64,000 nucleotides of DNA from a bacterium (GTDB lineage Bacteria > JAAXHH01), in NCBI GenBank assembly GCA_965203885.1, contig OZ241920.1, positions 3,073,476 through 3,137,475 of the forward strand, written 5' to 3'. Under the pieces are notes generated by a model. It made no database searches and was not told the origin of the DNA. It worked only from the letters and a program-made list of their open reading frames with translations. Position 1 is the stretch's first letter. The number at the start of each line of letters is the position of its first letter. Positions 5,716 through 62,011 of the stretch are shown here, piece by piece. A program made the position numbers and the translations under genes.

Positions 5716-5753
5716 GCCTTACCGCCGGTGCAGGTCCACCGCCTGACGGGCCC

Positions 5754-7199: not shown

Positions 7200-7339
7200 T
7201 TTTTTCGCAGGTTTTGTATTTAATCTCCGACTGGTACTATATTGACAGTGCATTTGAATGAATGTATTGGTCGAATATCGCCATAGGACCTTCATCGGGC
7301 CGCCCGTACAAATCCCCTTTCAATTCCTGGAACCGAAAA

Positions 7340-7510
7340 CATGTCTACGAGCAACAACAAGAAAGCGCAGATAAAGGTTCACAGCACCGTATTCGGCGTA
7401 CAGCGTATAGACAGAAACGAGTTCACCAGAAGCAAGAAGGCCATGGACACCATCCGTAAATTCATGGAACGTGATCACAAGTTTCAGAAACGAGCGCACG
7501 GAAAGTGAGT
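7340..7510 (+). CDS. small basic hypothetical protein (56 aa), low-GC
   Basis: ATG at 7340, stop TGA 7508-7510, 3 bp before the next ATG (7513); below the ORF-track size cutoff; translation MSTSNNKKAQIKVHSTVFGVQRIDRNEFTRSKKAMDTIRKFMERDHKFQKRAHGK. Confidence 0.25.
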
Positions 7511-7512
7511 AG

Positions 7513-8253: not shown

Positions 8254-8292
8254 GTAAGCGAATCTGTAATTACCCTGATTTCGTATACGGAA

Positions 8293-9216
8293 ATGAACCC
8301 TGCCGAACCCCACGTAACCATCGTCATACTCAACCTGAACCGGGAATCGGACACGCTGGAGTGCCTGGAGTCCGTCGCGCGCATGACCTACCCGTCCTTT
8401 TCGGTCGTGGTCGTGGACAACGGATCGACCGACGGGTCGCCGGACGCCATCGAGGGCTGGGGACGGGAGAACCTGCCCCTGGCACTCATTCGCAACGCCG
8501 ATAACCGGGGTTTCGCCGGGGGCGGCAACCAGGGCATGCGCCACGCGCTGGCGGCCGGCACCGATTACGTGTTCCTGTTGAACGACGATACGGTGGTAGA
8601 TCCCGACGTATTGGATATCCTCGTTCGAGCGGCGGAACGTTCCGGCGATATCGGCATGGTGGGTCCCAAGATATACCAGTATGGAAAGGGCAAGATACTC
8701 GACTCGGCGGGTACGCGTACGATACCGTGGCTGGCCCAGGGGTTCCTCGTCGGCCACGGGGAAGAGGACCGGGGCCAGTACGATGCCACGGCCGAGATGC
8801 CCTACATCACGGGGACGGCGCTCCTGGTCAAGCGCGCCGTGCTGGAGCAGGTCGGACTGATGGATGAGGACTATTTTTGCTACTTCGATGACTTCGACTG
8901 GGGAATGCGGACGCGGGAAGCCGGTTACAAACTCTATCTGGAGCCCAGGGCGGTGATCCGCCACAAGGGGACGCAGACCATCGGTTTAAACAGTCCATTC
9001 TATATGCTTCACATGGTGCGCAGCAGGATTCTGTTCGCGAGAAAACACGTGCCGCACCTGCCGTTTCTGTTCGCGTTCCTGCCTTACCTTTTTCTGTATC
9101 GGTATCTACGTCCGCTCGCTATCTTGGTCATCCGCCGCAGGTGGACCCACCTGGGCGCGCTCCATCGCGGGATCCGGGAGGGATTCGCCGCCCGGATCAC
9201 GTCGGGCAACGGTTGA
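8293..9216 (+). CDS. family 2 glycosyltransferase (GT-A fold)
   Basis: 'VTIVILNLNRESDTLECLESV...VVVDNGSTDGS' and 'LLNDDTVVDPD' DxD region, typical GT2. Confidence 0.8.
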   Translation: MNPAEPHVTIVILNLNRESDTLECLESVARMTYPSFSVVVVDNGSTDGSPDAIEGWGRENLPLALIRNADNRGFAGGGNQGMRHALAAGTDYVFLLNDDTVVDPDVLDILVRAAERSGDIGMVGPKIYQYGKGKILDSAGTRTIPWLAQGFLVGHGEEDRGQYDATAEMPYITGTALLVKRAVLEQVGLMDEDYFCYFDDFDWGMRTREAGYKLYLEPRAVIRHKGTQTIGLNSPFYMLHMVRSRILFARKHVPHLPFLFAFLPYLFLYRYLRPLAILVIRRRWTHLGALHRGIREGFAARITSGNG

Positions 9217-9374: not shown

Positions 9375-11870
9375 ATGGCGAAGAAACAACCACATACGCG
9401 ACCCGATCGGCGCAGAACCGGCGGAGCGGACAGAACCCGCGGCTCGGCCAGGGACCGGCGGGAACGCTCGGCGCGCACGGAACGCACGGCACGAACCTTG
9501 CATCCGTACGTCCAGGATGCCTTGTTCTGCCTGGTGATCGCGGTGTTGGCCATCTTCGTTTACCGCGGCTATATCATCGAAGGCAAGATGGACATCCGGC
9601 CAGATTTCATTGGCCAGGCCATTCCCTTCGACCGCTTCGCGCAGGACTTCGCAAGCCGGTCCGGCGAAACGCCCCTCTGGTACCCCCACATCTTCGGCGG
9701 CATGCCCTTCCAGGCCAGCGGCACCTATCACCATCTGCAGTACAGCTTCGAAGCCCTGGTCAACGCCGTCCTGCCGGACGGGCTCATCGGCGCGCTGCAC
9801 GGCCGCTTCTTCTTCCACCTGCTCCTCGGCGCGGTCTCCATGTTCTTCCTGGCGCGGGCCCTGTCGCTCTCGCGGCCCGCGTCTTTCGTCGCCGCGGCGG
9901 CCTTCGTGTTCTCCACCCACATGATGGCCACGGAACACGCGAACCGGTTCATCTGCTTCATGCACGTCCCCCTCGTCTTCCTGGCCGCCTACCGCGTATT
10001 CGATCGCGGCAGGGTGTTCGACATGGTATTGCTCGGCGGCGCCTTCGGCTCGCAGTTGTGTTCCTTTCATCCCCAGATCGCCTTCTACACGGCCATGCTG
10101 ATCGGCCTGTACGCCGCGTACGCCGTGATCAACGACCTGCGGGACCGGGCGCCCGCCGGCATCATGCTGAGGAAATCCGGTCTTTTCGCGGGCGGAATCG
10201 TCCTGGCCCTGGCCGTCGCGGCGGTGCTCGTGCTGCCCATGCAGGAATACGCGCAGTATTCCGTCCGGGGCCTCTCCGTCGGCGGCAGCGGCGTCAACGC
10301 CCCCTTCGCCACGAGCTGGTCGTTCCCGCCCATCGAAGTGCTGACCTTCCTCATCCCATCCTTCGCCGGGTTCGGCGGGCTCTTCTACTGGGGGGACATG
10401 CCCTTCACGGACTTTCCCAACTACCTGGGCGTCGTCGTTTTCGTGCTGGCGGTATCGGGCGTAATCCTTCGCCCTTCGCGCATGACCGCCTTCCTCGTCC
10501 TGGCGGCCGCGCTGGCGCTCCTGGTCTCCTTCGGGCGGCACCTGCCCCCCGTATCCTACGTCATGCTCCACTTCGTCCCCTTCTTCGCCAAGTTCCGCGC
10601 GCCGGTCATGATCCTGGTGATCGTGCAGTTCGCGGCCGCCCTGCTGGCGGGATACGGCGTGCACGCGCTGATCGAACGGATCCGCGCGGGCCGGGACAGT
10701 CTGAGGCGCTTCGCGACGCGGCTGTGCTGCGTGGCCGGCGGGGTGCTCCTGCTGGTCCTGGTCCTGACCGTGTTCGAGTCCTCCTTCCAGTCCTTCATGA
10801 CGGGCGTCTACGTACAGGCGGACGCGGCCCACGGTTCGCGCGCGGGCCTCCTGGACAACGCGGATTACCACGCCCGGCTCAACGCCATGCGTTTCGGCCT
10901 GCTCATGGCCGACCTGTGGCTCATGACGCTGTTCCTCTGCGCGGCGGCCGCGCTGCTCTTCGCCACCCGCAAGGCGGGCCCGGCGCTGTTTGCCGCCGGC
11001 GTGAGCGCACTCCTCGCCGTCGACCTGCTGCTCGTGGCCTCGCGGGTCGTGAACCCCGAAGACGATCCCGCGCGGATCCAGGCCCATTACGCCGCCCGCG
11101 AAAACGAGATCGTGAAGGCCCTGGAGGAAGACACCGGCCTGTACCGCATCCTCCCGCTGTCCGAGTTCTCGTCCAACGAGTACGGATACTTCGGCATCTC
11201 CAGCATCGGCGGCTACCACGCCGCCAAACTCGGTATCTACCAGGAACTCATGGACCGGGTGGGGTTCAGCTCCTTTCCGGTTTTGAACATGCTCAATACC
11301 CGTTACCTTGTGTCCCGGCAGCCTCTACCGGAATCCGGGCTCTCGCCCGTGGCCGAGTCCGACGGCGGATACCTCTACCGGAACGACGCCGCGCTGCCGC
11401 GGGCCTTCCTGGTGGACAGCGTGCAAGTCGTCGCCGGGAAGGACGCCGTCTTCGAAGCGTTGAACGAGCCCGGGTTCGAACCCGGCGAGTACGCGATCCT
11501 GGAGCAGCCCGTCCGGGAGGCGTTGGGGCCGCTGGGCGAATCCTCCGTGGAGATCACGGCGCACACGCCCCATCGCATCGAGGTGGCGGTGGAGGCCGAC
11601 GCGCCGGGCCTGCTGGTGCTCAGCGAGATCTACTATCCGGCCGGGTGGAGCGCCACGATCGACGGCGAGCCCGCCGAGATATACAAGACCAACTACGTGC
11701 TGCGCTCCGTGGCCGTCCCGGCGGGCCGTCATGAAGTCGTCATGACCTTTGCCCCGTCGAGCTTTGCCACGGGACTCCTCGTGAGCCGGATCGCCGGCAC
11801 GCTGGTCCTGGCCGGGTTGATCGCCGCGGGCGCGATGCGCATCAGAAAGCGCCTGAAGGCCGGGGCCTGA
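9375..11870 (+). CDS. yfhO: YfhO family membrane glycosyltransferase (GT-C fold)
   Basis: 831 aa; many N-terminal TM helices (e.g. 'LWYPHIFGGMPFQASGTYHHL', 'FFLARALSL'), large C-terminal extracytoplasmic domain ending in a TM anchor; adjacent GtrB-like GT2 reproduces the known CsbB-YfhO / GtrB-GT-C pairing. Confidence 0.75.
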   Translation: MAKKQPHTRPDRRRTGGADRTRGSARDRRERSARTERTARTLHPYVQDALFCLVIAVLAIFVYRGYIIEGKMDIRPDFIGQAIPFDRFAQDFASRSGETPLWYPHIFGGMPFQASGTYHHLQYSFEALVNAVLPDGLIGALHGRFFFHLLLGAVSMFFLARALSLSRPASFVAAAAFVFSTHMMATEHANRFICFMHVPLVFLAAYRVFDRGRVFDMVLLGGAFGSQLCSFHPQIAFYTAMLIGLYAAYAVINDLRDRAPAGIMLRKSGLFAGGIVLALAVAAVLVLPMQEYAQYSVRGLSVGGSGVNAPFATSWSFPPIEVLTFLIPSFAGFGGLFYWGDMPFTDFPNYLGVVVFVLAVSGVILRPSRMTAFLVLAAALALLVSFGRHLPPVSYVMLHFVPFFAKFRAPVMILVIVQFAAALLAGYGVHALIERIRAGRDSLRRFATRLCCVAGGVLLLVLVLTVFESSFQSFMTGVYVQADAAHGSRAGLLDNADYHARLNAMRFGLLMADLWLMTLFLCAAAALLFATRKAGPALFAAGVSALLAVDLLLVASRVVNPEDDPARIQAHYAARENEIVKALEEDTGLYRILPLSEFSSNEYGYFGISSIGGYHAAKLGIYQELMDRVGFSSFPVLNMLNTRYLVSRQPLPESGLSPVAESDGGYLYRNDAALPRAFLVDSVQVVAGKDAVFEALNEPGFEPGEYAILEQPVREALGPLGESSVEITAHTPHRIEVAVEADAPGLLVLSEIYYPAGWSATIDGEPAEIYKTNYVLRSVAVPAGRHEVVMTFAPSSFATGLLVSRIAGTLVLAGLIAAGAMRIRKRLKAGA

Positions 11871-15389: not shown

Positions 15390-16262
15390 TCATCCCGGTT
15401 TTTTGCAGAGTATATACAGTCCCATGGCCACTTCGTGAGCGCGTTCGTTCTTTACCAGAACGTAGTCTGCAAACTTGAATGGCCACAGCAGCACAAGGGG
15501 CACAAGCCTGAAAAGACCGTTAACGTATCGGTTGTTTGAGAACGAAAAAAGTTCGAACCAGTCAGCTGCAATTGCTGTGAAAGCGGATCCAGGACCGACA
15601 CATACGCCTTTCTCAACTACCTTGTACTTATCAAACAGAATCTTCAGGCCTTCGATTGTGTACCGTTGAAAGTCATTTGGATATGCATGAAAATGTGCTA
15701 TGAATGGTAGTTCCGTATAGACATACCCTCCTGGTTTCAACACACGAAACATTTCATCAACCACACGATTCGGATCCCTCACGTGCTCCAGCACAGCAGT
15801 ATTGTATATTAGTTTGAAGGTGTTGTCTTCGAAGGGAATCTCTAATGCGGAAGCGACGACATCCACATTTTCAAACCGATCGATATCGAGATTAACCTGA
15901 TTAGTGGCAGATGCAGTGGTTCCTGAACCTACTACAAGTCTTAACTCTTCCTCGTATTTCGACCAGATTTCTGCAACACGAGGGGTAATCGGCAGGTGTA
16001 AGGTACTTCCGATACCTTTCTTTAGTACGTTAAGGCACTTTTCCAACAATCCCGTTTTGAACTCCGACCGCATTTGATCGGCTTTCTCGAAATCGTAATG
16101 CAAACGCTGATGTTCGGCTTCCTCCAGAAGGACCGGTACCTCATCTATCACTGGGAATCTGTGATCTGAATCCCGACAAGCAAAGAGGTCGTTCGATATT
16201 CTGGTCAGATTACCGTGACACCTCGGACACCGGAGAAGGTGCTCGAATCGTTCGAGATTCAT
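15390..16262 (-). CDS. SAM-dependent methyltransferase (Methyltransf_11-like) with N-terminal Trm112-like zinc ribbon; lower GC than neighbours
   Basis: 'LLRCPRCHGNL...FACRDSDHRFPVIDEVPVLL' Trm112-like; 'LEHVRDPNRVVDEMFRVLKPGGYVY' motif post-II; visibly lower GC than the adjacent methyltransferase. Confidence 0.75.
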   Translation of the reverse strand: MNLERFEHLLRCPRCHGNLTRISNDLFACRDSDHRFPVIDEVPVLLEEAEHQRLHYDFEKADQMRSEFKTGLLEKCLNVLKKGIGSTLHLPITPRVAEIWSKYEEELRLVVGSGTTASATNQVNLDIDRFENVDVVASALEIPFEDNTFKLIYNTAVLEHVRDPNRVVDEMFRVLKPGGYVYTELPFIAHFHAYPNDFQRYTIEGLKILFDKYKVVEKGVCVGPGSAFTAIAADWFELFSFSNNRYVNGLFRLVPLVLLWPFKFADYVLVKNERAHEVAMGLYILCKKPG

Positions 16263-39412: not shown

Positions 39413-41008
39413 CTATTCGATCCGCTTGATGATGTGAAAACCCATGGACGTCTCGACGACCGCGCTCAGTTCACCGACTTGCAGTCCCATCGCGGCCCGC
39501 TCGAATTCCGGGATCATCTCGCCCGGACCGAAGAACCCGAGGTCGCCTCCGACGTTCCGGCTCGAATCGATGGAGGTCTCCCGGGCCAGTTCGACAAAAT
39601 CGGCGCCGGCCTCCAGCCGTTCCATCACGGCCTGCGCTTCCGCCTGCGTGGCGACGACGATCTGGCGGACGCGTATCTTGTTGGATTCGATGGCCTTCGT
39701 CCTCTCCTCCACGACCCGCCTGACCCGGCTCAACGCGGCCTTCAGCGGCGCGTTTTCCGGCGCGAGGGCGAGGGCCTGTTCGTACTGGGCAATCGCCTGG
39801 CCGAATTCTTCCCGCCGTTCGTGTATCATGGCGGTTTCCGCGTAAATGCGGGGGTCTCTCGCGCCCATTTCGAGTATCTCCCCGTAGTACTCCAGGGCAT
39901 CGGAAAAGCGGCCTTCGGCGAAGGCGAGGCGGGCCAGCGCCACGCGCGGAACCACCGACTGCCCGCCGACCTCCAGGGCCCGTTCCCAGACCGCGCGCGT
40001 GCTGTCCGGCTGGTCCTTGTTCTGGTAGGCGGTCCCCAGGTTCATGTAGGCGTCCATGTAGTCCGGCGCGAGTTCGACGGCCCGCTTCCATTCCACGATC
40101 GCGTCGTCGACCCGATCCATGTTCAAGTATGAAACGCCGAGATTGAGATGGATCCTGGGCAACTGGTCTTCCGGGGGAGACAGGGTGAGCACCTTCTCGT
40201 AGGTATCGGCCGCCTTTTCGAATTCCTCGGTATCGGTATATACCTTGCCGAGATTCGTGTAGGCGTCGACGTAGGAGGAATCGTCCTCGATGGCCTGCCG
40301 GTAGTGGTGGATCGCTTCGTCGAGATACCCGCCCTGGTTGTACACGAACGCCATGGCGGTATGGGCCGCGGCCAGTTCCGGCGGCCCCTCCATCATCCTG
40401 TCGTACTGGGTCCGGGCCCAGGCGTAGACCGTATCGGTGGGAACGATCGTCATGCGCGCGATGCTGAGCGTATCGCCCTCCACGGTCTTCTTGAACGCAT
40501 CCAGCGCCGCGTTCATGTCCCCCCTGGCGTGATGTACCAGGCCGAGCGTAAGGTAGGCGGCGGCAAAGCCTGGCGCGACCTCCAGGGCGTGTTCGATATG
40601 GACCTGGGCGCTGTCGATCTCTCCCTGCGCATAGTACACGGCGCCCAGGTTGTTCTTCGCGAGGGCGACGGCGGCCAGGAACTGCTGCAGCGCCGCCTGC
40701 TGCCGCTGCTCGGGCGTCAGGGTGGTGTCCGGTTCCGCGCCTTCCCCGGCGGCCGCGCCGGACTGGCCGACCGGGATCAATCCGGCGGGCGCGGGGGTCT
40801 GCTGCGCATCGGTCCCGGCAGAAGTCTGGGTCTCGGCTTCGGTAGACGCCTGGGCGCCGGCCTCGGCAGAAGTCTGCGTATCGGCCTCGGCAGACGTCTG
40901 GGCGCCGGCCGGAGCAACCCAGAATATGCAGAGAAAAAGGACGCTAAGGGCCGGCGTCAGGACCGTACGAAACGGTGCGCCGCCCCGTGCATGGTTGCTT
41001 AAGCTCAT
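39413..41008 (-). CDS. secreted TPR-repeat protein fused to a C-terminal PpiC-type (parvulin) peptidyl-prolyl isomerase domain
   Basis: Signal/TM 'ALSVLFLCIFWVAPAGAQ'; 'TSAEA(D/G/E)TQ' repeats; multiple TPR-like helices; C-terminal 'GGDLGFFGPGEMIPEFERAAMGLQVGELSAVVETSMGFHIIKR' parvulin signature. Confidence 0.75.
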   Translation of the reverse strand: MSLSNHARGGAPFRTVLTPALSVLFLCIFWVAPAGAQTSAEADTQTSAEAGAQASTEAETQTSAGTDAQQTPAPAGLIPVGQSGAAAGEGAEPDTTLTPEQRQQAALQQFLAAVALAKNNLGAVYYAQGEIDSAQVHIEHALEVAPGFAAAYLTLGLVHHARGDMNAALDAFKKTVEGDTLSIARMTIVPTDTVYAWARTQYDRMMEGPPELAAAHTAMAFVYNQGGYLDEAIHHYRQAIEDDSSYVDAYTNLGKVYTDTEEFEKAADTYEKVLTLSPPEDQLPRIHLNLGVSYLNMDRVDDAIVEWKRAVELAPDYMDAYMNLGTAYQNKDQPDSTRAVWERALEVGGQSVVPRVALARLAFAEGRFSDALEYYGEILEMGARDPRIYAETAMIHERREEFGQAIAQYEQALALAPENAPLKAALSRVRRVVEERTKAIESNKIRVRQIVVATQAEAQAVMERLEAGADFVELARETSIDSSRNVGGDLGFFGPGEMIPEFERAAMGLQVGELSAVVETSMGFHIIKRIE

Positions 41009-41041
41009 ATGCCACCGCCTTCCGGTATGGATCACTATATC

Positions 41042-41193
41042 GGTCCCGCGCTTCATCTCAGCGGCTCCGCGTCTCTTCTGGTCCCGCGCTTCGTCTCAGC
41101 GGCTCCGCGTCTCATCTGGACCCGCGCTTCCTCTCAACGGCTCCGCGTCTCTTCTGGTTCCCCGCTTCGTCTCAACGGCTCCGCGTCTCCTCA
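41042..41193. repeat. 38-bp direct tandem repeat x4 (ggtcccgcgcttcgtctcagcggctccgcgtctc(t/a)tct-like)
   Basis: Four units starting at 41042, 41080, 41118, 41156 read directly; no unique spacers between units. Confidence 0.9.
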
Positions 41194-42515
41194 GGTTCCA
41201 GCTCGCACAAAATCTCCAGGGCCTCGCCCACCAGCGCGAAACATCCGGTCACGAGGACCAGGTCGTCCGGTTGCGCCAGGGCCTTCGCCTCCGCGACGGC
41301 TTCCGCGACGGACGGCGCCGTCCGCGACGGCGTTCCAAGCGCCGCGCAGGCCGCCGCCACTTCCGCGGGACCGGCCTGCCGGCTTCTGAGTACCCGCCGC
41401 TCGGGGACGAGGATCTCGTCGGCGTATTGCGCGATGACCCGGCACAACGCGCCCACCGCCTTGTCGCGGTGCGCGGACAACACGACGATGACGCGGCGGG
41501 CCGGGAAGAGCCGGCGCAGGCTGGCCGTCAGGTTCTCCGCCGCCAGCACGTTGTGAGCGACGTCCAGTACCAGCCAGGGGCCGCTCCGGATCAGCTGCAT
41601 GCGTCCCGGCAACCGTACCGTCGAGAGGCCGCGGCGTACCCCATCGGCCGTTATTTCCATGCCCCGCTTCGCCAGGGCCTCCGCCACGCCCACGGCCACG
41701 GCCGCGTTGCCGGCCTGAAAAGCGCCGGACAGCGGGAGCGTGACCCCTTCGTACGACCCGCCGGCCGTCTCGATATCCACCACCTGCCGGCCCACCGCTT
41801 CTTCCCGGAGGGCGTACCGCACGTCGACGCCCGCCTCCACGAGGGGGCTCGACCGGAGCCGGCAGGCCTCCCGGATCACTTCCGATGCCTGCGGCGGCTG
41901 GGCGGCGGAAACGGTGCAGGCGCCTTCCTTTACGATCCCGGCTTTCTCGCGGGCGATCTCCGCAATCGTCTCGCCGAGGCGGTCCGTGTGGTCCAGCCCT
42001 ATGGGCGTAATCGCGCAGGCCATCGGCTGGATCACGTTGGTCGAATCCAGCCGCCCGCCGAGACCGCACTCGACCACCGCCAGGTCCACCCGGCGTTCCT
42101 TAAAATACACAAAGGCCAGGGCCGTGAGTATATCAAAAAACGAACCCATGCCCTCCGGCCGCAGCCGGGTTCCTTCGATGGCCGGACGCGCGCGTTCGGT
42201 CAGTCCGGCGAACGCGCGTTCGGTGATGGGCTCGCCGTCGACCTGGATGCGTTCGCGCAGCGACACCAGGTGGGGCGACGTGTACAGGCCCACGCGGTAG
42301 CCGCTTTCGCGGAGGATGGACGCGATCATGACGGCGGTGGACCCCTTCCCCTTGGTCCCCGCCACGTGTACCGATTTCCAATGCCGTTCGGGATGGCCGA
42401 GGGCTTCCGTCAGCGCGGAAATGCCCGCCAGGTCCATGCGTTCCGGCGCGGCGCCCGGCATCTTTTCGAAATCCACGAAGTCGTAGAGATAGTCCAGCGC
42501 CTCTTTGAAGGTCAT
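41172..42515 (-). CDS. folC: bifunctional folylpolyglutamate synthase / dihydrofolate synthase
   Basis: 'HVAGTKGKGST' Mur-ligase P-loop, 'TSPHL', FolC length. Confidence 0.88.
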   Translation of the reverse strand: MTFKEALDYLYDFVDFEKMPGAAPERMDLAGISALTEALGHPERHWKSVHVAGTKGKGSTAVMIASILRESGYRVGLYTSPHLVSLRERIQVDGEPITERAFAGLTERARPAIEGTRLRPEGMGSFFDILTALAFVYFKERRVDLAVVECGLGGRLDSTNVIQPMACAITPIGLDHTDRLGETIAEIAREKAGIVKEGACTVSAAQPPQASEVIREACRLRSSPLVEAGVDVRYALREEAVGRQVVDIETAGGSYEGVTLPLSGAFQAGNAAVAVGVAEALAKRGMEITADGVRRGLSTVRLPGRMQLIRSGPWLVLDVAHNVLAAENLTASLRRLFPARRVIVVLSAHRDKAVGALCRVIAQYADEILVPERRVLRSRQAGPAEVAAACAALGTPSRTAPSVAEAVAEAKALAQPDDLVLVTGCFALVGEALEILCELEPEETRSR

Positions 42516-49375: not shown

Positions 49376-49495
49376 TCCCCCGGCAGCGTCCTACTCTCCC
49401 ACAAGGTCACCCAAGCAGTACCATCGGCGCAAGAGGGCTTAACTACTCTGTTCGGAATGGGAAGAGGTGTTTCCCCTCCGCTATCGCCACCGGAA
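49376..49495 (-). rRNA. rrf: 5S ribosomal RNA
   Basis: Reverse complement aligns to bacterial 5S (e.g. 'ggcagcgtcctactctccc', 'accatcggcgc'); boundaries +/-5 nt. Confidence 0.9.
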
Positions 49496-49546
49496 GAAAT
49501 GGGGTGCAATTACAAGGAATGAGAGAACGACGACGTATCATGGAGC

Positions 49547-52615
<3,069 letters not shown>

Positions 52616-52750
52616 AACAAATGCTACTGTGCTTGAGTGCTCCGATGTTACAACGCCGTTCCCGTCATTCCTATGTAATTGTCAAAGAGCGGGCGCCGTC
52701 TTCGTCGTGCTGGCCGTACCGGTCGTACTGGTCCTGCCGACGGTGCCCCA

Positions 52751-52826
52751 GTGGAGATAACCGGGATCGAACCGGTGACCTCCGGCTTGCAAAGCCGGCG
52801 CTCTCCCAGCTGAGCTATATCCCCGG
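52751..52826 (-). tRNA. tRNA-Ala (anticodon TGC)
   Basis: Reverse complement 'ggggatatagctcagctgggagagcgccggctttgcaagccggaggtcaccggttcgatcccggttatctcca'; anticodon loop cTTTGCAa. Confidence 0.93.
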
Positions 52827-52833
52827 CTTTCGG

Positions 52834-52911
<78 letters not shown>

Positions 52912-52998
52912 CCGTTGCTTCAGGCCCCCCCGCTCCAAAAAACATGACAGCGTGCACGCCGTTCGCCGGACAAGTCGACCTCGAGTTGCGATAACTCT

Positions 52999-54555
<1,557 letters not shown>

Positions 54556-54869
54556 ATAAAAGAAAAGTCCAATCTTGAATTGCATCTGTGTGAACCCCCC
54601 GGACGGATCCGGAGAGCCCTTGCCAGACGACTAGGACATGCACGCTGCCATGTTTTCAAAGAGCGTAATCTTACCGCAACCCGCGCAAGATACACAGCCG
54701 GGTATATGAAGTCAACAGGTTTCTTTATTTTTAATTCCTGTTGACCAAACAGCCGTCGTACAGCGGGATTCGGGCCCGAAACGGGGGTCCGAACCTGGGG
54801 CGGCAAACCGCGTTCCTCGCCGGGATTGCGCGGCCGGTTCGGGCCGATCAGGGGCCCCGCCGGGAGGCG

Positions 54870-55892
54870 CTATCCGGGCACGCTTCCGAGGGGCTCGATC
54901 GACAACAATCCGCTGCCGTTTGCAGGGTGCGAATCGTTGCCCTGTCCGGGGTGCGCGGCGGCCTGGTGCGAGCCGTTCCTGTTCGTCCCGTGTGCCCCGC
55001 CGGATCCCGAAGGCGCCCCGCCGCCGACGCTGTCCGCCTGGTCGGCCGCGTGGTAGGAGCTGCGGACCAGGGGGCCGGACTCCACGTGGGGGATGCCGTA
55101 CGCCTCGCCCGCCTGCTTGAACCGGGCGAATTCGTCCGGGTGATAGTGCTTGCGCACCGGCAGGTGCTTCTTCGTCGGCTGCAGGTACTGACCCACCGTC
55201 AGGATGTCGCTTTTCACCGCGGCCACGTCGCGCATCAGGGCGTGGACGGCTTCGTCCGTCTCGCCGAGCCCCACCATGATGCCCGTCTTCGTCTTCGCGC
55301 CGCGGGCCTTCGCGCGCTCGAGCAGTTCCAGGGACTGGTCGTACCGCGCCTGGGGCCGCACGGTCCGGTACAGGTCCGGCACCGTCTCCAGGTTGTGGTT
55401 CAGCAGGTCGGGACGGGCGTCAAGCACAGTCTGGAGCGCCGCTTCCGATCCCTTGAAATCGGGGATGAGCACTTCCACGCCCACGCCCGGGCACCGGCGG
55501 CGGATGGCCCGGATCGTCTCGGCGAAGATGGGCGCGCCGCCGTCCGCCCGCTCGTCTCGGTTGACCGAGGTGATCACGGCGAACCGCAGGCCCAGCTTCT
55601 CCACGGCGCCGGCCACGCGCTCAGGCTCGTCCCAGTCCAGCCCCTTGTCCGGCCGGCCCGTCTTCACCGCGCAGAACCCGCAGCTGCGCGTGCAGATGTC
55701 GCCCAGGATCATGAAGGTGGCGGTCCGCTGCTCCCAGCATTCCCAGATATTCGGGCACTGGGCGCTCTCGCAGATGGTGTGGAGCCGGTTGTCCCCGACC
55801 AGGCGCTTCAGCTCCCGGAAGTTCGGCCCCTGCTTCAGGCGCACCTTGAGCCACGGGGGCTTGGGCACGTGGGATGTGGTCGATTCGCTCAT
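54870..55892 (-). CDS. lipA: lipoyl synthase with ~50-aa low-complexity C-terminal extension
   Basis: '[13 protein letters not shown]' and 'CTRSCGFC' Fe-S cluster motifs; tail '[39 protein letters not shown]'. Confidence 0.9.
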
Positions 55893-56171
55893 GTTACCTT
55901 AACGGGTTCCGGCGATGCACGTACTCAATAGGCACCGCGAGACGATGCTTGCGGTTTGGAGCCAATGGTTCGGCGACGGGGCCAGCTTGAAATCCGGTTG
56001 GCCGGCATCACGCCTGCGCGGCCGGCATCCTGCCGCCATCAGGAACAAAAAGCGACCCTCCGGCAACGGGAACAGTGGTTCCGCGCCGGAGCGGCCGCCA
56101 TGGTTGTCAGGTTCTCTGCTTGCTCTTTGTTGTCCGGGTTACGGTCGAGGCCCGACCGGTTGTTTCGAGCC

Positions 56172-56666
56172 TCATCCAGGCTTCATTTCGGGCGCGCCGT
56201 CGTCCCCCGGCGAAATGACCACGGCCTCCTCGCCGAGATGGCCCGCGATGGTCTGCGACAACTCGTTCAGGTCGGTCCGGCAGAAACCCGTGTTGCTGTC
56301 CAGGATCCCGCCGCTGTCATCCATGAGGAACCACGTCGGCACGTTCGTCAGTCCGAAATCCGAGGAGGCCCAGTGGGTGGCGTCGTACACGTTCTCGAAG
56401 GTCGCGCCGTGCTCTTCCATGAACGCCCGCGTGTCCTCCGGCGTGTCCTGCGAGACGCCCACTACCCGGAATCCACCGTTGCCGCCGTAGGCCTGGTGGA
56501 TCTTCTCGAAATAGGGGGCGCTGAACTTGCAGGTCCCGCAGCCCACCTTGTAGAAGACCGCCAGCAGCCAGCCGCCGTCCGCCTGGTCGCCCAGCGACGT
56601 CGACTGTCCGTCCGCGTCTTCCAGCGTGACTTCCGGGGCCGCGACCCCGGCTTCCAGGAACGCCAT
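56172..56666 (-). CDS. thioredoxin-like thiol-disulfide oxidoreductase (TlpA/AhpC-TSA redoxin family)
   Basis: 'FYKVGCGTCKF' CxxC active site in a thioredoxin fold. Confidence 0.7.
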   Translation of the reverse strand: MAFLEAGVAAPEVTLEDADGQSTSLGDQADGGWLLAVFYKVGCGTCKFSAPYFEKIHQAYGGNGGFRVVGVSQDTPEDTRAFMEEHGATFENVYDATHWASSDFGLTNVPTWFLMDDSGGILDSNTGFCRTDLNELSQTIAGHLGEEAVVISPGDDGAPEMKPG

Positions 56667-56999
56667 GAATTACTCCCGTATGGGTTGGGATATGGTATTA
56701 AGAAGTACTCGATTACGACATGCTTAGCAGGTGACAACGATCGTTTTTTGTACGAATGTGCTCTAATACCTATATTAATCGGATACACGAAAAGTGTCAA
56801 CGATCCTGTGGTATCGTAACTGGAACGGATCGCCAAGTTTTGAATGCCCATATCGAGCTATGGAAGCGCTCGTCCGAACCATTAAAGGCTGGGAAGCTAG
56901 CTCAAAACTACCAAGAAACCTCGAATCTCTTTGAAAGATCAATGTTTAGACTATATTACGAATTAAACGGCCAAGGTCTTCTACACGCGGAGTTTAATC

Positions 57000-57209
57000 A
57001 TGGCGAAGCTGCAATCGACGACTTTCCAAACTGAGATTCCCACCGGTCTGGCTTCGCAGGCCCAAAAACTGGTCGAGGCCGGCTGGTTTCGTGATCTCGA
57101 CGAACTCGTCCTGGACGCACTGCGACGTTTTCTGGAGTCCCATCGTGAAGAATTGATGGAAGATTCTATTCGACAAGACCTCGAGTGGGGTCTGACAGGC
57201 GATGAATAA
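57000..57209 (+). CDS. type II antitoxin, UPF0175-like (partner of DUF3368 PIN toxins)
   Basis: 69 aa; 'LVEAGWFRDLDELVLDALRRFLESH' resembles UPF0175 antitoxins; overlaps the downstream PIN gene by 8 bp. Confidence 0.55.
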   Translation: MAKLQSTTFQTEIPTGLASQAQKLVEAGWFRDLDELVLDALRRFLESHREELMEDSIRQDLEWGLTGDE

Positions 57210-57699
57210 ACCGACGCCAAGCGTTGTATGCGATGCCGGTCCCCTGATACATCTCGACGAACTCGACGCACTGTCGTTGTTGAACGATTTCGATCCCGTA
57301 CTTGTGCCCGAACAAGTCGGGCAAGAGGTATCCCATCATCGTCCGGGCGTGCTTGACGATTCCGTCTTGCGCTGTCAACAGGTCGGTGTCGTCATACCCT
57401 CGGATCCATCCTTTCAAATCCTGGCGCAAACCCTATCTCTGGATATCGGTGAACAAGCGGCATTGAAACTGATGCAAGGGCATCCTCAAGCTATCTTCCT
57501 GACGGATGACGCCGCCGCCCGGCTGGCTGCGTTCACCCTCGGCTATCGCGTGCATGGAAGTATTGGTATTCTGGTACGTGCTATTCGACGCCATCAGCTG
57601 TCAAGAGACGAAGTTAAAGAGATACTATGTACGATTCCCCGCAGGTCTACGCTCCACATCCGCCCGGATTTACTTGTGGATATAATCAAAAAGCTGTGA
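57202..57699 (+). CDS. PIN-domain toxin (DUF3368 / PIN_3-like, VapC-type)
   Basis: 'VVCDAGPLIHLDELDAL' N-terminal PIN acidic motif; 'IFLTDDAAARLAAFTLG' second acidic motif; length ~165 aa. Confidence 0.7.
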   Translation: MNKPTPSVVCDAGPLIHLDELDALSLLNDFDPVLVPEQVGQEVSHHRPGVLDDSVLRCQQVGVVIPSDPSFQILAQTLSLDIGEQAALKLMQGHPQAIFLTDDAAARLAAFTLGYRVHGSIGILVRAIRRHQLSRDEVKEILCTIPRRSTLHIRPDLLVDIIKKL

Positions 57700-57870
57700 T
57701 TCGCAGCTTGATGCGTTCTTCTCTCCCAGGCATTCGTCTATCCGTTTGATATCCCGCCAACGGCCTGGTTACTGTCGATCATATCCCTGCGCCATCAACA
57801 GTAAATCGTCGTTCTATTTTTGATCTTTGAGCCCGTTGAGTCGTCTTATTCTACGTAACGATTCGCTTTT

Positions 57871-59775
57871 TTGATCTTGCGCGAGGCTCCAATGACAACC
57901 ACCACACACGACGACACGTATAGCATCCTGCAATGCCTGCAGGGAAACGCCAACGCCTTCGAATCCTTGGTCCGGCGGTATCAGAACGCCGCTTTCGCCG
58001 TGGCGCTGGGCTACCTCCGGGACCGTACGGACGCCGAGGACGTTGTGCAGGATGCTTTTGTCGCGGCCTTCTGCAAGCTGTCGCAACTGAAAGATCCGGC
58101 CGTTTTCGGCAACTGGTTTCACCGTATCGTAGTCAACCGTTGCAAGGAGTGGAGCCGTCGTAACAAGGCGGGTCGTCTGAGCCGAGTCGATCCGGATGCT
58201 GAACACATTCGCGACGAATTCCCCCAAGCGGACCGTATGCATCGGGAATACATCGAGTGTCTAGAGCTATGGGATGAAGTCGAAAAGCTACCCGAACATT
58301 ACCGCCAGGTCGTCACGCTGTACTATTACACCGGTTTTTCACTGAAAGAAATCGCCACGTTTCTCGACATTCCCGAATCCACGGCGAGAGGGCGGCTGTA
58401 TCAATCCCGAATCCGACTGAGAAACGCGTTATCGCCCCAGGAGAAGGAGACCATCGCCATGAGTCAGATCGATGTCACTGAAGATGTCCAGGATGTGGTC
58501 TGCAAGATCGCTAGGGAGGACTTTAAAGAAAAGACCGATATGGGTGACGTGGAAAACATCGTCCTCTATTGCGGCGTCAGCACGGAAGTCGAGATAAAAC
58601 AGGCCGAAGGAGATCAGGTCGTAATCGAAGGCTCGAAGATCGCGTTGGGTCTGACGGAGGACGAAGCGCGAAGTAACCTCAGTGGGTTTCATGTTTCTCA
58701 TGACCAGGTCGACGATTACATGGAAACGGGTCCGCACGACGGAGCGTTGTTTCTCAGCGCCAAGCACTGGTTTCCTGATAACGTCCCGTACACCGAACCT
58801 ATCAGCAAGTACTGGAAACGCGATCTGAAGAACGAAAGCGTACTCGACGATAAGCGGGGCGGTGTCAGAATGGTCGACGCCTTACCGGATTCGAAGCATG
58901 AAATCAATGCGTTCCTGCCGTTGCCGGGACCTGCGGAGAAAGGCCTGGGGAAGTCGATACGGGTCACGGTTCACGCTTCGGATGCGCGACCCATCAGAAT
59001 GACCAGAGATGCCGTGTCAGACAACGTCGAGCGTATATTCCGGTCCATGCAGTCCGATAACACCAGGCTATACGGACCCGCGACGTACTGCCATCTTTCG
59101 GTCGCTGTTCCCGCCGGCGCGAACATCTCGATTTTCAGGTCGGACAAGGTGAATGTCGATGGCCTGGATGGTTCACTGATGGCTTATTCCTGCTCTTCTT
59201 GCAGGGTAAGCGAGATAACGGGGGACGTTTACCTGTTCAACAGCATGTTTTCGGATATAGGAAGCGTGGGCGGCTCGTTGTACCAGCGCATGTACGGGTA
59301 CGGCGGCGATGGAGGCTGCAGCATGGACGGCAACATGCTGCGACGAATTCCCTATCAGCACGAAGGAAAGATCGAAGCGGTCATGGGCGACGTGGATATC
59401 GACGTCGGATGCATGGACTTGAACGCGCTCGACCTCGAGGGCGATATCGCCATTTACAACCGATATGGCAGAACCCGGGTGGCTCAGAGTGGCTACAACA
59501 AAGGGCAGCGGTGCTATGTCCGAAGTGTTTCCGGCGACGTTGACCTGGTCCTGGACAGGAAAAGGGCGAAAGACGTCCGCCTGGTCATGCATACCGTTTG
59601 CGGTGTGGCGAAGTACGGGGAGTTGAAAAAGTTAATGCCCATCATATCATGGGCACACAACGAATACTGGATGACGCTGGCATCAACGTACGACTTCGCA
59701 AATCCAGACATCACGGTCTTAACGGAAAGCGGCACCGTCGACATCATCGTGGCGAAGAACGGCAAGCACAGTTGA
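57871..59775 (+). CDS. ECF-type sigma-70 factor (regions 2 and 4) fused to a ~440-aa C-terminal domain with Toastrack/DUF4097-like 'GDVD(I/L)' repeats; no transmembrane segment evident
   Basis: N-terminal 'ESLVRRYQNAAFAVALGYLRDRTDAEDVVQDAFVAAFCKL' (sigma r2) and 'LPEHYRQVVTLYYYTGFSLKEIATFLDIPESTARGRLYQSRIRL' (r4 HTH). C-terminal 'SGDVDLVL', 'GDVDIDVG', 'GDVYLFN', 'SGTVDIIV' beta-helix-like repeats and Cys-rich segment (SCSSC, GGCSMDG, GCMD). Lower GC than genome. Confidence 0.7.
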   Translation: MILREAPMTTTTHDDTYSILQCLQGNANAFESLVRRYQNAAFAVALGYLRDRTDAEDVVQDAFVAAFCKLSQLKDPAVFGNWFHRIVVNRCKEWSRRNKAGRLSRVDPDAEHIRDEFPQADRMHREYIECLELWDEVEKLPEHYRQVVTLYYYTGFSLKEIATFLDIPESTARGRLYQSRIRLRNALSPQEKETIAMSQIDVTEDVQDVVCKIAREDFKEKTDMGDVENIVLYCGVSTEVEIKQAEGDQVVIEGSKIALGLTEDEARSNLSGFHVSHDQVDDYMETGPHDGALFLSAKHWFPDNVPYTEPISKYWKRDLKNESVLDDKRGGVRMVDALPDSKHEINAFLPLPGPAEKGLGKSIRVTVHASDARPIRMTRDAVSDNVERIFRSMQSDNTRLYGPATYCHLSVAVPAGANISIFRSDKVNVDGLDGSLMAYSCSSCRVSEITGDVYLFNSMFSDIGSVGGSLYQRMYGYGGDGGCSMDGNMLRRIPYQHEGKIEAVMGDVDIDVGCMDLNALDLEGDIAIYNRYGRTRVAQSGYNKGQRCYVRSVSGDVDLVLDRKRAKDVRLVMHTVCGVAKYGELKKLMPIISWAHNEYWMTLASTYDFANPDITVLTESGTVDIIVAKNGKHS

Positions 59776-59823
59776 ATGGCCGGCCGTAGATGAACACACG
59801 ATATTTACTCCTCGCGTCAATCC

Positions 59824-60942
59824 TTACTCCTCGGTGACGGTCTCCTCGGGGACGGCCTCCTCGGTGACAGCCTCCGCGGGGAGGGTTCCTACGCCAAGTG
59901 ATGCGGGACCTTTCCTGAACACGAACGGGAACCGCATGCGCATCTTTACACGCTCACCTTTACGCACTGCCGGCGTCCAGACCATTTTCCGAGCAACGTC
60001 CAGCATCAGAGTGTCCACGGCAACGCGACCTGACGACATTTCGACGAAAGCCGCGACCACGTTGCCAGTAGTACCTACCACGACTTGAACCATTGTGATT
60101 CCATCGAAATTGAGATCAACGACATCGGTGGGCATAGTGGGGTGATAGACAGCCTCTGCTATCGTGTCCACCGTTGTGGTCGTATAGATGCCGGCTTCTT
60201 CGTCGACCTCCAGTTCCGGGAGCCTGGTCGGAGGCGGTTGGACGGCCAAGTCCGGATGGGCTGAAGTAGGCGGTTGGGCGGCCGAGTCCGTTTGGGCTGC
60301 TGAAGACAGTTGGACTTCCGGTTCTGGTTGATCCTCATCGCCTGCGGCGGCAGCAGCCACCATTTTCGAAATCTCCGAGATACGTGCCTCCGCCGAATTG
60401 GTATCGGTGAAATCGACGGGGGACAATTGCAACACATTGCCGGTCCGGTCGATCAATACGCTGTAAGGTGAAGACGGCAGATCAAAGGGCGAATCGACGG
60501 CCAGATACACGGGAAAGCTGTACCTGAATTTCTCCACGATCGGCGTGATCTCCTCGGCCGATTCCGCCTGGAGCACGCCGACAACCGGGACATTGTCCCC
60601 GATCACCGATCCGAATAAAGACATCATGTCGAGGTACATTGGAAATTGCCGCGCCCCAAAAAACAGGAGGAACAAACGCCCCTCACCGAAATTCGGCAGC
60701 TCGGCAGGCTGGCCGTGTTGGTCGACCGCGGGGAAGGGGGCGATAAACGGCGCGCCGAACATCTTTTCCGCCTGGAGCACGCGGATTTCCACCTGGGCGT
60801 TGTATAGCCTGTTCTGCGCATTCTGAAGTTCCCGGATTTGCCGGTCATTGAGCCAGAGGAGGGCGATGCTCAATGCGGCGAGGACCGCGACGGCGACGTA
60901 AAGGTATCGCCGGATGTTGGTACGTGGGGCAGGTGTGGTCAT
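59824..60942 (-). CDS. membrane-anchored TonB C-terminal domain protein with a degenerate (CxxC-less) thioredoxin/TlpA-like central domain and Pro-rich linker
   Basis: N-terminal TM 'YLYVAVAVLAALSIALLWL'; central 'RLFLLFFGARQFPMY...PVYLAVDSPF...SVLIDRTGNV' thioredoxin-like without catalytic cysteines; Pro-rich 'AQPPTSAHPDLAVQPPPTRLPE'; C-terminal 'VVDLNFDGITMVQVVVGTTGNVVAAFVEMSSGRVAVDTLMLDVARKMVWTPAVRKGERV' TonB_C-like. Confidence 0.55.
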   Translation of the reverse strand: MTTPAPRTNIRRYLYVAVAVLAALSIALLWLNDRQIRELQNAQNRLYNAQVEIRVLQAEKMFGAPFIAPFPAVDQHGQPAELPNFGEGRLFLLFFGARQFPMYLDMMSLFGSVIGDNVPVVGVLQAESAEEITPIVEKFRYSFPVYLAVDSPFDLPSSPYSVLIDRTGNVLQLSPVDFTDTNSAEARISEISKMVAAAAAGDEDQPEPEVQLSSAAQTDSAAQPPTSAHPDLAVQPPPTRLPELEVDEEAGIYTTTTVDTIAEAVYHPTMPTDVVDLNFDGITMVQVVVGTTGNVVAAFVEMSSGRVAVDTLMLDVARKMVWTPAVRKGERVKMRMRFPFVFRKGPASLGVGTLPAEAVTEEAVPEETVTEE

Positions 60943-61273
60943 GTCGCTGGTTCCATGGTTAGGGACAATGGTGATGTTTGGGGACAGTTATGATTGGGCA
61001 AATATTACGTAAGGGACAATTGCAGTAAATTGCAATGGTATAGCTTTGCAAACGTCCGGTCAACTGAACTGGTTCCCAAATGCACGACGAATGACGCGCG
61101 AACGGACTGCGCGCGGAAGATTTGGCCTCGAACGACGACGCGCGGCCTGCGTGCGGTCATTCGAATTTCTATTCAATTCAGCATTCCTTCACGTTTCCCG
61201 CACGAGATTTTCTTCCGAAACACGACTATTCCTGAATAACACCGAATCACACACCCGGTTTCAGGCAGGCGTC

Positions 61274-62011
61274 GTGCATCCATCTAAACGAAATACACCC
61301 GATCCCCCGCTGATCCGCTTCCAGGATCTCCGCCGGTCCTTCCCGATGGGCGGGGAGCGCATTACCGCGCTCAGGGGCGTCTCCGCGGTCATTCGCCTGG
61401 GCGAATACGTGGCCGTGATGGGGCAGTCCGGGTCCGGAAAGTCCACCCTTATGAACATCCTGGGCTGCATGGACAGGCCGACGGCGGGCCGCTACGAACT
61501 CGACGGGAGGCCGGTGGAAGCCCTGTCGGAAGACGAGCAGGCCATGATCCGCAACCGGAAGATCGGGTTCGTGTTCCAGGCCTTCAACCTGCTTCCGAGA
61601 ATGGATGCCCTGCGCAACGTGGAGCTGCCGCTGCTCTACCGCGGAATGGACGGAAAGGAGCGGCGAGGTCGCGCCATGGAAGCCCTGGAATCGGTGGGCG
61701 TCGGCGACCGGACCCGCCACAGGCCCAACGAGATGTCGGGCGGTCAACGGCAGCGCGTGGCCATCGCCCGCGCGCTGGTGGGCGAGCCTTCCATCATTCT
61801 GGCGGACGAGCCCACGGGGAACCTGGACAGCGGGACCGGTGAGGAGATCATGGCCCTTTTCGACCGTCTGAACGGGGAAGGCCATACGATCGTGCTGGTG
61901 ACCCACGAAGCGCACGTGGCCCGGCACTGCAGGCGGATCGTCCGTCTGCGCGACGGGCGGATCGAGATGGACCGTTGGATATCGCGGCCGCCGAGCGCGA
62001 TGGCCGGATGA
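61274..62011 (+). CDS. ABC transporter ATP-binding protein (LolD/MacB/FtsE-like), probable GTG start
   Basis: 'GQSGSGKSTLMNILG' Walker A, 'MSGGQRQRVAIARAL' signature, 'ILADEPTGNLD' Walker B; no ATG upstream of Walker A in frame, GTG at 61274. Confidence 0.8.
   Translation: MHPSKRNTPDPPLIRFQDLRRSFPMGGERITALRGVSAVIRLGEYVAVMGQSGSGKSTLMNILGCMDRPTAGRYELDGRPVEALSEDEQAMIRNRKIGFVFQAFNLLPRMDALRNVELPLLYRGMDGKERRGRAMEALESVGVGDRTRHRPNEMSGGQRQRVAIARALVGEPSIILADEPTGNLDSGTGEEIMALFDRLNGEGHTIVLVTHEAHVARHCRRIVRLRDGRIEMDRWISRPPSAMAG

Follow-up and report, generated by a model that had tools for sequence, protein, structure and literature searches.

Why does a 4.6-kb stretch of an otherwise GC-rich bacterial genome remain conspicuously AT-rich, and do the genes that it carries belong together as a regulatory system? 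The question is raised by interval 56667-61273 of a 64,000-nucleotide (nt) window, the whole stretch of DNA analysed (GenBank assembly GCA_965203885.1, contig OZ241920.1, positions 3,073,476 to 3,137,475 of the forward strand; GTDB lineage JAAXHH01), to whose numbering all coordinates refer. Between a redoxin gene and an ATP-binding cassette (ABC) ATPase gene, this interval carries a small toxin-antitoxin (TA) pair, a gene for a 627-amino-acid (aa) extracytoplasmic function (ECF) sigma factor fused to a second domain, and a convergent gene for a membrane protein with a TonB_C domain. A first-pass annotation had read it as a horizontally acquired regulatory island. Comparison with related genomes points instead to an old, clade-wide, persistently GC-poor and hypervariable locus that has received one small TA insertion recently, and we consider it probable, by mechanistic steps that we infer, that this locus is built around a soluble ECF sigma factor that has no separate anti-sigma factor and instead carries a fused, Toastrack-like domain.

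The compositional break is borne out by sliding GC, by GC at third codon positions (GC3), and by codon usage. The window has an overall GC content of ~66-68%, and its profile runs at 0.65-0.71 over 54750-56500, falls to 0.48-0.58 over 56500-61250, and returns to 0.65-0.72 beyond 61250, with the three AT-rich intergenic stretches noted at first reading measuring 42% (56667-56999), 48% (57700-57891), and 51% GC (60943-61318). GC3 is 0.54 and 0.53 in the 69- and 165-aa genes of the TA pair, 0.69 in the sigma fusion (equal in its sigma and C-terminal domains), and 0.68 in the TonB_C gene, against 0.92, 0.89, and 0.86 in the flanking lipA, redoxin, and ABC ATPase genes and 0.864±0.038 (minimum 0.789) in 33 further open reading frames (ORFs) of the window that show a coding signature and served as the native reference for codon statistics. 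By codon-usage log-odds the four interval genes lie 5.3-9.5 standard deviations (SD) under this native set, and GC at first and second codon positions is low as well, so that the proteins themselves are AT-biased. On the left, the interval is bounded by the AhpC/TSA-redoxin gene (56172-56666, reverse strand; Pfam AhpC-TSA, 1.4e-17; GC3 0.885), a conserved anchor, and on the right by a MacB/LolD-type ABC ATPase gene of native composition (61274-62011, forward strand; GC3 0.857 from 61319), whose NCBIfam matches to the MacB ATPase part (1.1e-76) and LolD (1.2e-66) are both under their cut-offs. As had been remarked, no integrase or tRNA was found in the window at the interval borders, and an rRNA operon (49378-54560) lies 2.1 kb away; the suggested search for flanking direct repeats, extended to inverted ones and to the TA cassette, returned only short chance-level matches.

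Low-GC patches are not unique to this interval, as two further isolated genes in the window show: a 246-aa gene without a Pfam match (7513-8253, forward strand; 42% GC) and a 290-aa methyltransferase gene (15390-16262, reverse strand; 46% GC). Their codon-usage scores lie ~11 SD under the native genes, and, more than the interval, they resemble genes acquired recently in the ordinary way.

The position of the locus is shared among relatives. In 17 related loci, of which 15 come from GTDB species representatives (interval content was tabulated for 18 intervals, those of the 17 relatives and that of the window; loci are cited by our numbers, L001 onwards), the sigma fusion occupies the same redoxin–ABC ATPase interval in 17 of 17 (within L002-L020), with the redoxin protein 85-95% identical in all relatives and the ABC ATPase, 79-85% identical, always adjoining the locus. 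The interval ranges from 2.3 to 11.2 kb in these relatives and has a GC content of 0.47-0.54 versus 0.60-0.67 in the flanks of every genome. Because the anomaly is present at the syntenic interval in every genome compared, it is old and maintained and no sign of recent arrival. The first-pass annotation had coupled two expectations for resident genes, namely synteny in relatives and composition within the native range; the former holds for the core genes, and the latter fails in every genome. Content, in contrast to position, is hypervariable: the minimal interval consists of the sigma fusion alone (L014, L020), whereas others hold the sigma fusion once or twice, in some cases disrupted, a TonB_C gene, intact or decayed (12 of 18 intervals), and further cargo comprising ADOP/MacB-like duplicated permeases, a DUF2268/GldB_lipo-like protein, a DUF4932 protein, and one insertion sequence (IS) element, whose transposase lies in the same interval in L002. 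The copy in the window is a reduced version, with the sigma fusion and TonB_C gene plus the inserted TA cassette. Fragments of the 5' part of the ABC ATPase gene occur inside the interval in L007 (12014-12229) and L008 (14553-14666) and seem to be traces left by rearrangement or insertion at the right border. The genomes that encode homologues of the sigma fusion are uncultured and labelled Gemmatimonadetes/Gemmatimonadota or Latescibacterota, and the sample and isolate labels suggest that the clade is associated with sponges and corals.

The gene common to these intervals (57892-59775, forward strand) encodes a protein in which Pfam and NCBIfam models place a sigma-2 region at aa 33-99 (Sigma70_r2, 48 bits) and a sigma-4 region at aa 132-183 (Sigma70_r4_2, 47 bits), both above Pfam cut-offs, as is Sigma70_ECF (27.7 bits); the Pfam scan gave no sigma-3 match, so that the 627-aa protein has the domain content of an ECF (group 4) sigma-70 factor. 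NCBIfam TIGR02937 (sigma70-ECF) matches at 88 bits versus a cut-off of 42.9, no NCBIfam equivalog reaches its cut-off, and in the PDB the best sequence matches are to ECF sigma factors, RpoE and SigW among them. Translation is taken to begin at the ATG at 57892, which is the conserved start; an exact-sequence look-up of the form beginning at an upstream TTG (57871) gave no match. The protein has no transmembrane (TM) segment (maximal 19-residue hydropathy 1.13), and ~80 full-length homologues share 56-99% identity with it. Three cysteines of the sigma-2 region, at aa 15, 61, and 84 (57934-58143), are at least 90% conserved within the clade and recall the conserved cysteines noted for ECF57 (PMC8999054).

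The sigma-4 region is followed by an extension of 438 aa, compared with the 50 aa beyond which an ECF is counted as extended. AlphaFold2 models this C-terminal part (aa 190-627; 58459-59775, forward strand) as beta-rich and beta-helix-like (pLDDT 83, pTM 0.85), preceded by a disordered linker at aa 186-203, and the distal part, which is variable and recombining, begins at about aa 225-285. The best Foldseek matches of the model are 4qrk (1.6e-5), 3lyc, 3jx8, 3pet, and 4opw, DUF4097-type "putative adhesin" structures, with Pfam DUF4097 matching 18 of 46 family members at E<=1 (sub-threshold, best 4e-4) and Toast-rack_PspC-Cterm matching 3 of the 46. Two measures count against this assignment, since the TM-scores of the Toastrack matches are low (0.18-0.28, normalised to the query) and DUF4097 matches the window protein itself only sub-threshold (E=0.04; 13.7 bits versus a cut-off of 22.9). 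Of the one-polypeptide ECF sigma/Toastrack fusion proposed at first reading, the ECF half therefore stands above cut-offs and the Toastrack half is sub-threshold in Pfam and supported by fold; we call the domain Toastrack-like, as its model resembles that fold, short of making it a proven member.

The family is rare, as a profile of the C-terminal domain run against 1.84 billion representative proteins retrieved 110 cluster representatives. The well-covered ones are mostly ~600-650 aa long, with the domain starting at aa ~185-198, and ECF sigma domains were found in 8 of 10 sampled. Distant members belong to Latescibacterota and Poribacteria, and the closest proteins beyond the family come from Poribacteria and Planctomycetes and are ECFs whose long extensions are of the beta-propeller/BNR type. 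In L022, a Latescibacterota metagenome-assembled genome (GCA_012103555.1), a Peptidase_S41/Tricorn_C1 gene (9821-11119) overlaps the stop of the homologue, and a PIN-domain gene pair lies directly upstream of it too. L023 carries two sigma-fusion genes (656 and 627 aa) with a 144-aa gene between them (4082-8884), and duplication is therefore recurrent outside the clade as well.

At none of the loci did a called gene or ORF cluster of the interval match an anti-sigma family, and neither the window as a whole nor the neighbourhoods with called genes yielded a gene with an anti-sigma domain. The extension itself has no class I anti-sigma fold, its model consisting of one short helix (aa 197-203) followed by beta strands; Pfam gave no zf-HC2 or RskA match in it, and the HxxxCxxC motif is absent from the alignment. 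A metal- or redox-sensing role based on conserved Cys and His residues was considered and dropped as a mechanism for the whole family, given that only His282 is nearly invariant in the wider family. Membership of a known defence system likewise went unsupported, with no PADLOC match for the sigma fusion, the TonB_C, DUF2268, and DUF4932 proteins, or the permease.

These features place the protein among ECFs with a fused C-terminal extension, described as the second most common mode of ECF regulation (PMC7826278), with which it shares the sigma-2/sigma-4 core lacking sigma-3, a long extension, and the lack of a nearby anti-sigma gene (PMC7826278, PMC8999054). It differs from them in that its extension is a ~440-aa Toastrack-like beta-helix, that a ribosome-binding site is conserved at the domain junction, and that the distal cassette recombines. 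How ECFs without an anti-sigma factor are switched is described as unresolved for most groups (PMC8999054), and the main texts of both papers do not mention a DUF4097/Toastrack extension (0 occurrences). With Toastrack proteins (DUF4097/DUF2154/DUF2807; LiaG, LiaF, YvlB, VraT) it shares a predicted cytoplasmic beta-helix and structural matches that include 4QRK and 4OPW, the two example structures of PMC11237479. That study ties Toastrack recurrently to transcription regulators, operon sigma factors, and pairs of ABC ATPase and FtsX-MacB permease, with a role that is only hypothesised, and here too the locus is invariably next to a MacB/LolD-type ATPase gene and often includes ADOP/MacB-like permeases in its cargo. 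Known Toastrack domains are, however, mostly membrane-anchored (via PspC, LiaI-LiaF, or other TM modules), whereas that of the window is soluble, fused to a sigma factor, and below the Pfam cut-off, and its interval showed neither psp nor lia genes.

The junction between the two domains carries what is predicted to be a second translation start. At 58444-58461 (forward strand), the sequence AAGGAG is followed by a 9-nt spacer and an ATG that encodes Met190, within the disordered linker; all 46 clade sequences have this methionine, its conservation in a wider set is at least 90%, and it is the sole internal methionine with a strong Shine-Dalgarno sequence in all copies. AAGGAG or CAGGAG stands exactly 9 nt before the ATG in 29 of 29 gene copies, the distant L021-L023 included, and the 16S rRNA of the organism, which ends in CCTCCTTTCT, carries CCTCC at its 3' end. 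Synonymous choice is narrow at this site: the codon for Glu186 is GAG in 25 of 25 intact copies, versus 39% gene-wide (GAA being preferred at 61%), that for Lys185 is AAG in 20 of 20 copies, and aa 181-193 form the window of lowest synonymous diversity in the gene, with the next lowest at the true 5' end. We predict that a free C-terminal domain of ~48 kDa is made beside the 69-kDa fusion.

Two apparent stand-alone domains among the homologues are not unfused ancestors. P0079 (L026), one of the proteins P0077-P0080 of 435-439 aa, reflects the choice of the internal start by the gene caller, the upstream sigma frame being open and in frame, and a similar 439-aa product in L002 results from an IS insertion into the sigma part. 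To our knowledge, no earlier case of an internal start in an ECF sigma factor has been described. The closest parallels are internal starts that release a C-terminal signalling domain, such as E. coli ArcB/ArcB-C and the AerR isoforms (bioRxiv 10.1101/520783, PMC6199135), which likewise combine a Shine-Dalgarno-like sequence and start at a domain boundary with conservation across species and locally lowered synonymous variation; the start in the window differs in being predicted from sequence and in that the released part would be the regulatory domain.

The two domains have also evolved differently. The sigma domain is 74-86% identical over all clade members, whereas the C-terminal domain falls into identity classes of 76-82%, 56-61%, and 45-53%, and the nearest relatives of the two are discordant; both are under purifying selection within the clade (dN/dS 0.08-0.15 for the sigma domain and 0.11-0.29 for the C-terminal domain). 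In three genome pairs, nucleotide identity stays at or above ~90% from the promoter across the sigma domain and for another 35-95 codons into the C-terminal domain and then falls abruptly to 50-65%, 100-300 nt downstream of Met190. Because identity drops this abruptly and the relatives of the domains disagree with the sigma module conserved, the alignments show the distal, presumed sensor domain being exchanged by recombination as a cassette on a constant promoter-plus-sigma module.

Upstream of the sigma fusion lies TTTTTGATCTTT-N13-GTCGTCTTAT (57817-57846), followed by CTACGTAAC (the whole element spanning 57817-57859, forward strand), with a GATC/AACC-N16-CGTC layout that is characteristic of ECF promoters and is conserved ahead of the gene in 13 clade loci. 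Similar motifs precede the homologues of Latescibacterota (L022) and of a Gemmatimonas-like genome (L021), and because these proteins are only 36-38% identical, common descent of the non-coding DNA is unlikely there. In a position weight matrix (PWM) scan of 0.99 Mb of strand sequence, matches of at least 14 bits were confined to the islands, with none in the flanks and 0-2 in shuffled sequence, although this specificity is overstated, the spacer columns of the matrix being conserved by descent. Four additional matches, all within islands, lie upstream of genes for DUF2268-family (lipoprotein) proteins or ADOP/MacB-like permeases in relatives. These patterns argue for a sigma factor that would activate transcription from its own promoter and from those of a small, cis-encoded regulon. 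Permease and DUF2268 genes are absent from the interval of the window, which tells against that picture here, and the regulon would shrink to the sigma gene itself, with the TonB_C gene as a possible second member. The idea of a self-contained regulatory circuit, raised at first reading, thus gains some support from the conserved ECF-type motif ahead of the sigma gene and of accessory genes in relatives. Its companion, cell-surface-like signalling, found none: no FecR-type anti-sigma gene lies in the interval of the window or any relative, and genes for TonB-dependent transducers are likewise missing from the window's interval and from the other intervals whose genes were called.

Some repeats adjoin this motif or mimic a promoter of similar type. 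An 11-nt inverted repeat (TTACTGTCGAT ... ATCAACAGTAA) lies directly upstream of the motif at 57769-57804, and the 11-mer TTTTTGATCTT is present twice, in the -35 region (57817-57827) and just before the start codon (57868-57878). A looser scan of the window for GGAACC-N15-17-CGTY gave 4 matches versus 2 expected and was discarded, two of them (41136-41199) being copies of a 38-nt tandem repeat and not promoters. This repeat (41042-41196; 4.1 units with 89% matches, two copies of which mimic a GGAACC-N16-CGTT promoter) lies between a Mur-ligase-like gene (41172-42515, reverse strand) and a tetratricopeptide-repeat plus peptidyl-prolyl isomerase gene (39413-41056, reverse strand).

The convergent neighbour (59824-60942, reverse strand) encodes a 372-aa protein with the TonB_C domain of the TonB family of energy transducers (Pfam PF03544; 28.6 bits versus a cut-off of 24.6). 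Its order of domains is a single N-terminal TM anchor (hydropathy 2.35), a coiled coil, a putative ResA/TlpA-like thioredoxin fold, a Pro/Gln-rich linker, and TonB_C at aa 267-343, and the family was found in this clade only. The TonB TM helix is characterised by a Ser-x3-His motif. The protein resembles TonB energy transducers in its membrane anchor, proline-rich spacer, and C-terminal domain, and differs from them in the extra periplasmic domain and in a TM helix that keeps the serine without the Ser-x3-His motif (Ser25 and Trp30 are invariant in the family, with no His); no exbB or exbD genes were found in the interval of the window. Of the TonB_C protein with a dead thioredoxin-like domain that had been proposed, the TonB_C domain and the convergent orientation hold, and the dead thioredoxin is weakly supported: the family profile aligns with B. 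subtilis ResA chains over 110 residues at E=0.004-0.025, and, unlike in ResA/TlpA oxidoreductases, the CxxC position reads (E/G/K)(S/A/P)(W/R/G)(H/Q/Y)x(P/V), with no cysteine there in 27 members and none anywhere in the window protein.

Upstream of the TonB_C gene, a block at 61035-61079 (reverse strand), conserved in eight related loci, holds an ECF-like GGAACC-N16-CGTT overlapping a sigma-70-like TTGACC-17-TACCAT. Between this block and the start codon lie three GGGACA(A/G)T repeats (ATTGTCCC on the gene strand; 60961-61022, reverse strand), two or three copies of which are conserved upstream of the gene in L011, L012, and L013; they are candidates for an operator or a leader element. In some gene calls the ATTGTCCC repeats are translated, which yields spurious N-terminal extensions of the protein.

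The TA pair, a mobile cassette, is the sole part of the interval that is specific to the lineage. In relatives (L006, L007, L011, L014-L017, and L020 were aligned), the redoxin and sigma genes are separated by a ~285-bp intergenic region. The left half of this ancestral region corresponds to 56667-56830 of the window (reverse strand), with the redoxin ribosome-binding site and a sigma-70-like promoter, TTGACA-17-TAATAT (56800-56772), and the right half, with the sigma promoter, to ~57735-57891. Homology is broken in between by a ~0.9-kb cassette (56831-57735, forward strand; borders approximate), and the alignment of the two halves on either side of the TA genes shows that the cassette was inserted within the ancestral spacer. 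None of L002-L021 has the TA genes; the one further occurrence of the cassette, with 98.6% nucleotide identity, is in contig L001, which comes from a different sample. The first gene (57000-57209, forward strand) encodes a putative 69-aa antitoxin with weak matches to an NCBIfam ParD family (E=0.0036) and to the ribbon-helix-helix family RHH_8 of Pfam (E=0.059). Its stop overlaps by 8 nt the start of a 165-aa DUF3368/PIN-like toxin gene (57202-57699, forward strand; Pfam DUF3368 E=0.0014, under the cut-off), whose product has 2409 homologues, with PF11848 on all 120 listed, and matches PADLOC PDC-S70 models (best E=9.6e-21). The pair had been labelled UPF0175/PIN: the overlapping layout of a type II TA module and the DUF3368/PIN-like toxin stand, and the UPF0175 label falls, with no match at E up to 10. 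It shares with DUF3368/PIN-like type II systems (COG2405-like "predicted nucleic acid-binding protein"; PDC-S70) a small upstream gene overlapping a PIN-like gene of ~165 aa, the PDC-S70 matches, and membership of a very widespread family, and differs in that its putative antitoxin has no confident family assignment, to UPF0175 or otherwise. In L001 (525-1142), the toxin ORF is called at 205 aa versus 165 aa, apparently through the stop position of the window, and among the toxin homologues listed most are ~165-175 aa.

How, then, did the locus become and stay GC-poor? That the whole 4.6-kb segment is a recently, horizontally acquired accessory island would explain composition and codon use 5-9 SD outside the native range and would suit the TA module and the IS transposase in the same interval of L002, and Latescibacterota and Poribacteria, in which the GC of the sigma-fusion gene equals that of its surroundings, are plausible as lower-GC donors, albeit ancient ones. 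We nevertheless consider such an origin very improbable, as 17 related loci have the sigma fusion at this very place, most of them together with the TonB_C gene, between flanking proteins 79-95% identical and with a sigma-domain dS of ~1; the window has no integrase, tRNA, or direct-repeat border, the presence/absence pattern expected of an island is confined to the 0.9-kb TA cassette, and the conserved intergenic alignment argues against independent gains by relatives. Atypical composition is the one island feature that extends over the whole interval. In the high-GC clade and in one Gemmatimonas-like genome, by contrast, the GC content of the gene lies below that of the DNA around it, and the pattern as a whole fits an ancient import from lower-GC lineages. 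Synonymous sites are, however, near saturation for the sigma domain and saturated between the classes of the C-terminal domain, so that simple amelioration should have finished and its absence needs a further cause. One possibility, to which we give rather limited credence, is a locus-specific regime, in which allele divergence suppresses recombination and GC-biased gene conversion, or weak expression relaxes codon selection. It would account for an anomaly shared by all interval genes in all genomes, for the same GC3 in the sigma and C-terminal domains, and for the hypervariable content, and it sits poorly with the low GC1 and GC2 of AT-biased proteins, with recombination inside the sigma-fusion gene, and with the other isolated low-GC genes of the window, which look like ordinary acquisitions. 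Continued exchange, reduced biased gene conversion, and weak expression are candidates for that further cause, the need for which is a weak point of the old, clade-wide locus that we favour.

As to function, a soluble ECF sigma factor governed by its own Toastrack-like domain would work as follows. The sigma factor would drive its own promoter and adjacent envelope-related genes, and the fused domain would gate it through protein-protein contacts at the inner face of the membrane, as proposed for Toastrack generally, most plausibly with parts of the adjacent type-VII ABC transporter (the MacB/LolD-type ATPase and permeases) or with the TonB_C/ResA-like protein. The internal start would yield a free sensor domain that modulates the full-length protein in trans, a purely cis-acting C-terminal domain being an alternative, and a swap of the distal domain would change the input and leave the output fixed. 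Several points weigh against this account: its steps are all inferred; the conserved Met190 and its AGGAG could serve another purpose; the TonB_C promoter block is equally readable as sigma-70-type, and its sequence cannot separate the two readings; and about half of the relatives lack an intact TonB_C gene, which is lost or degraded in L002, L006, L007, L008, L010, L014-L016, L019, and L020 and is therefore not an obligatory partner, so that its product is better described as a frequent but dispensable neighbour. The latter facts also nourish a competing reading that we find credible, if rather less than evenly so, in which the sigma fusion and the TonB_C/ResA-like gene are functionally unrelated neighbours and the latter is an odd TonB paralogue on an ordinary sigma-70 promoter. 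The genes are convergent and not co-transcribed, the sigma gene persists in the ten relatives that lost the TonB_C gene or carry it degraded, and the conserved block includes TTGACC-17-TACCAT and goes unmatched by the sigma-type PWM; yet both families occur in essentially the same clade, in the same interval, and at the same low GC, and the block also has, in eight loci, GGAACC-N16-CGTT with the spacing of the sigma gene's motif. It is unlikely, in our judgement, that the C-terminal domain is a fused anti-sigma-like inhibitor removed by proteolysis, a mode proposed for ECF groups whose extensions are anti-sigma-like, and the AGGAG-ATG at codon 190 an unused relic of a two-gene operon. The junction is indeed laid out like a coupled second gene, with a strong Shine-Dalgarno sequence and ATG in a linker, a Peptidase_S41 gene overlaps the end of the Latescibacterota fusion, the islands of relatives carry predicted Zn-protease-like DUF2268 genes, and proteolytic activation of extended ECFs is documented (PMC8999054). 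A relic would not, however, keep AGGAG synonymously in 25 of 25 copies against the preference for GAA, nor in homologues of 25-38% identity; the extension has neither the helical class-I fold nor HxxxCxxC; the DUF2268-family proteins resemble lipoproteins (GldB_lipo match) and are probably outside the cytoplasm; and no protease gene is conserved beside the sigma fusion in the clade.

ECF sigma factors are a main bacterial signalling device, and the sigma fusion described here offers a clean, testable case that does without an anti-sigma factor and combines three unusual features, namely a Toastrack-type extension, a deeply conserved internal start site that would release the regulatory domain on its own, and natural domain swaps, the last of which, set on a constant promoter/sigma module, amount to a ready-made specificity experiment. 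The locus further illustrates that even a marked anomaly in GC and codon usage is, on its own, no proof of recent transfer, since here it is kept at one locus in at least 15 species; ideas on why compositional amelioration is resisted at certain loci could usefully be tested on it. Tentatively, the dual-product gene (free Toastrack-like domain plus fusion), its swappable distal cassette, and its regulon may constitute an undescribed modular, one-component ECF system of uncultured Gemmatimonadota-like bacteria, Latescibacterota, and Poribacteria from marine invertebrate hosts; if so, one fixed promoter specificity could be wired to changing inputs.

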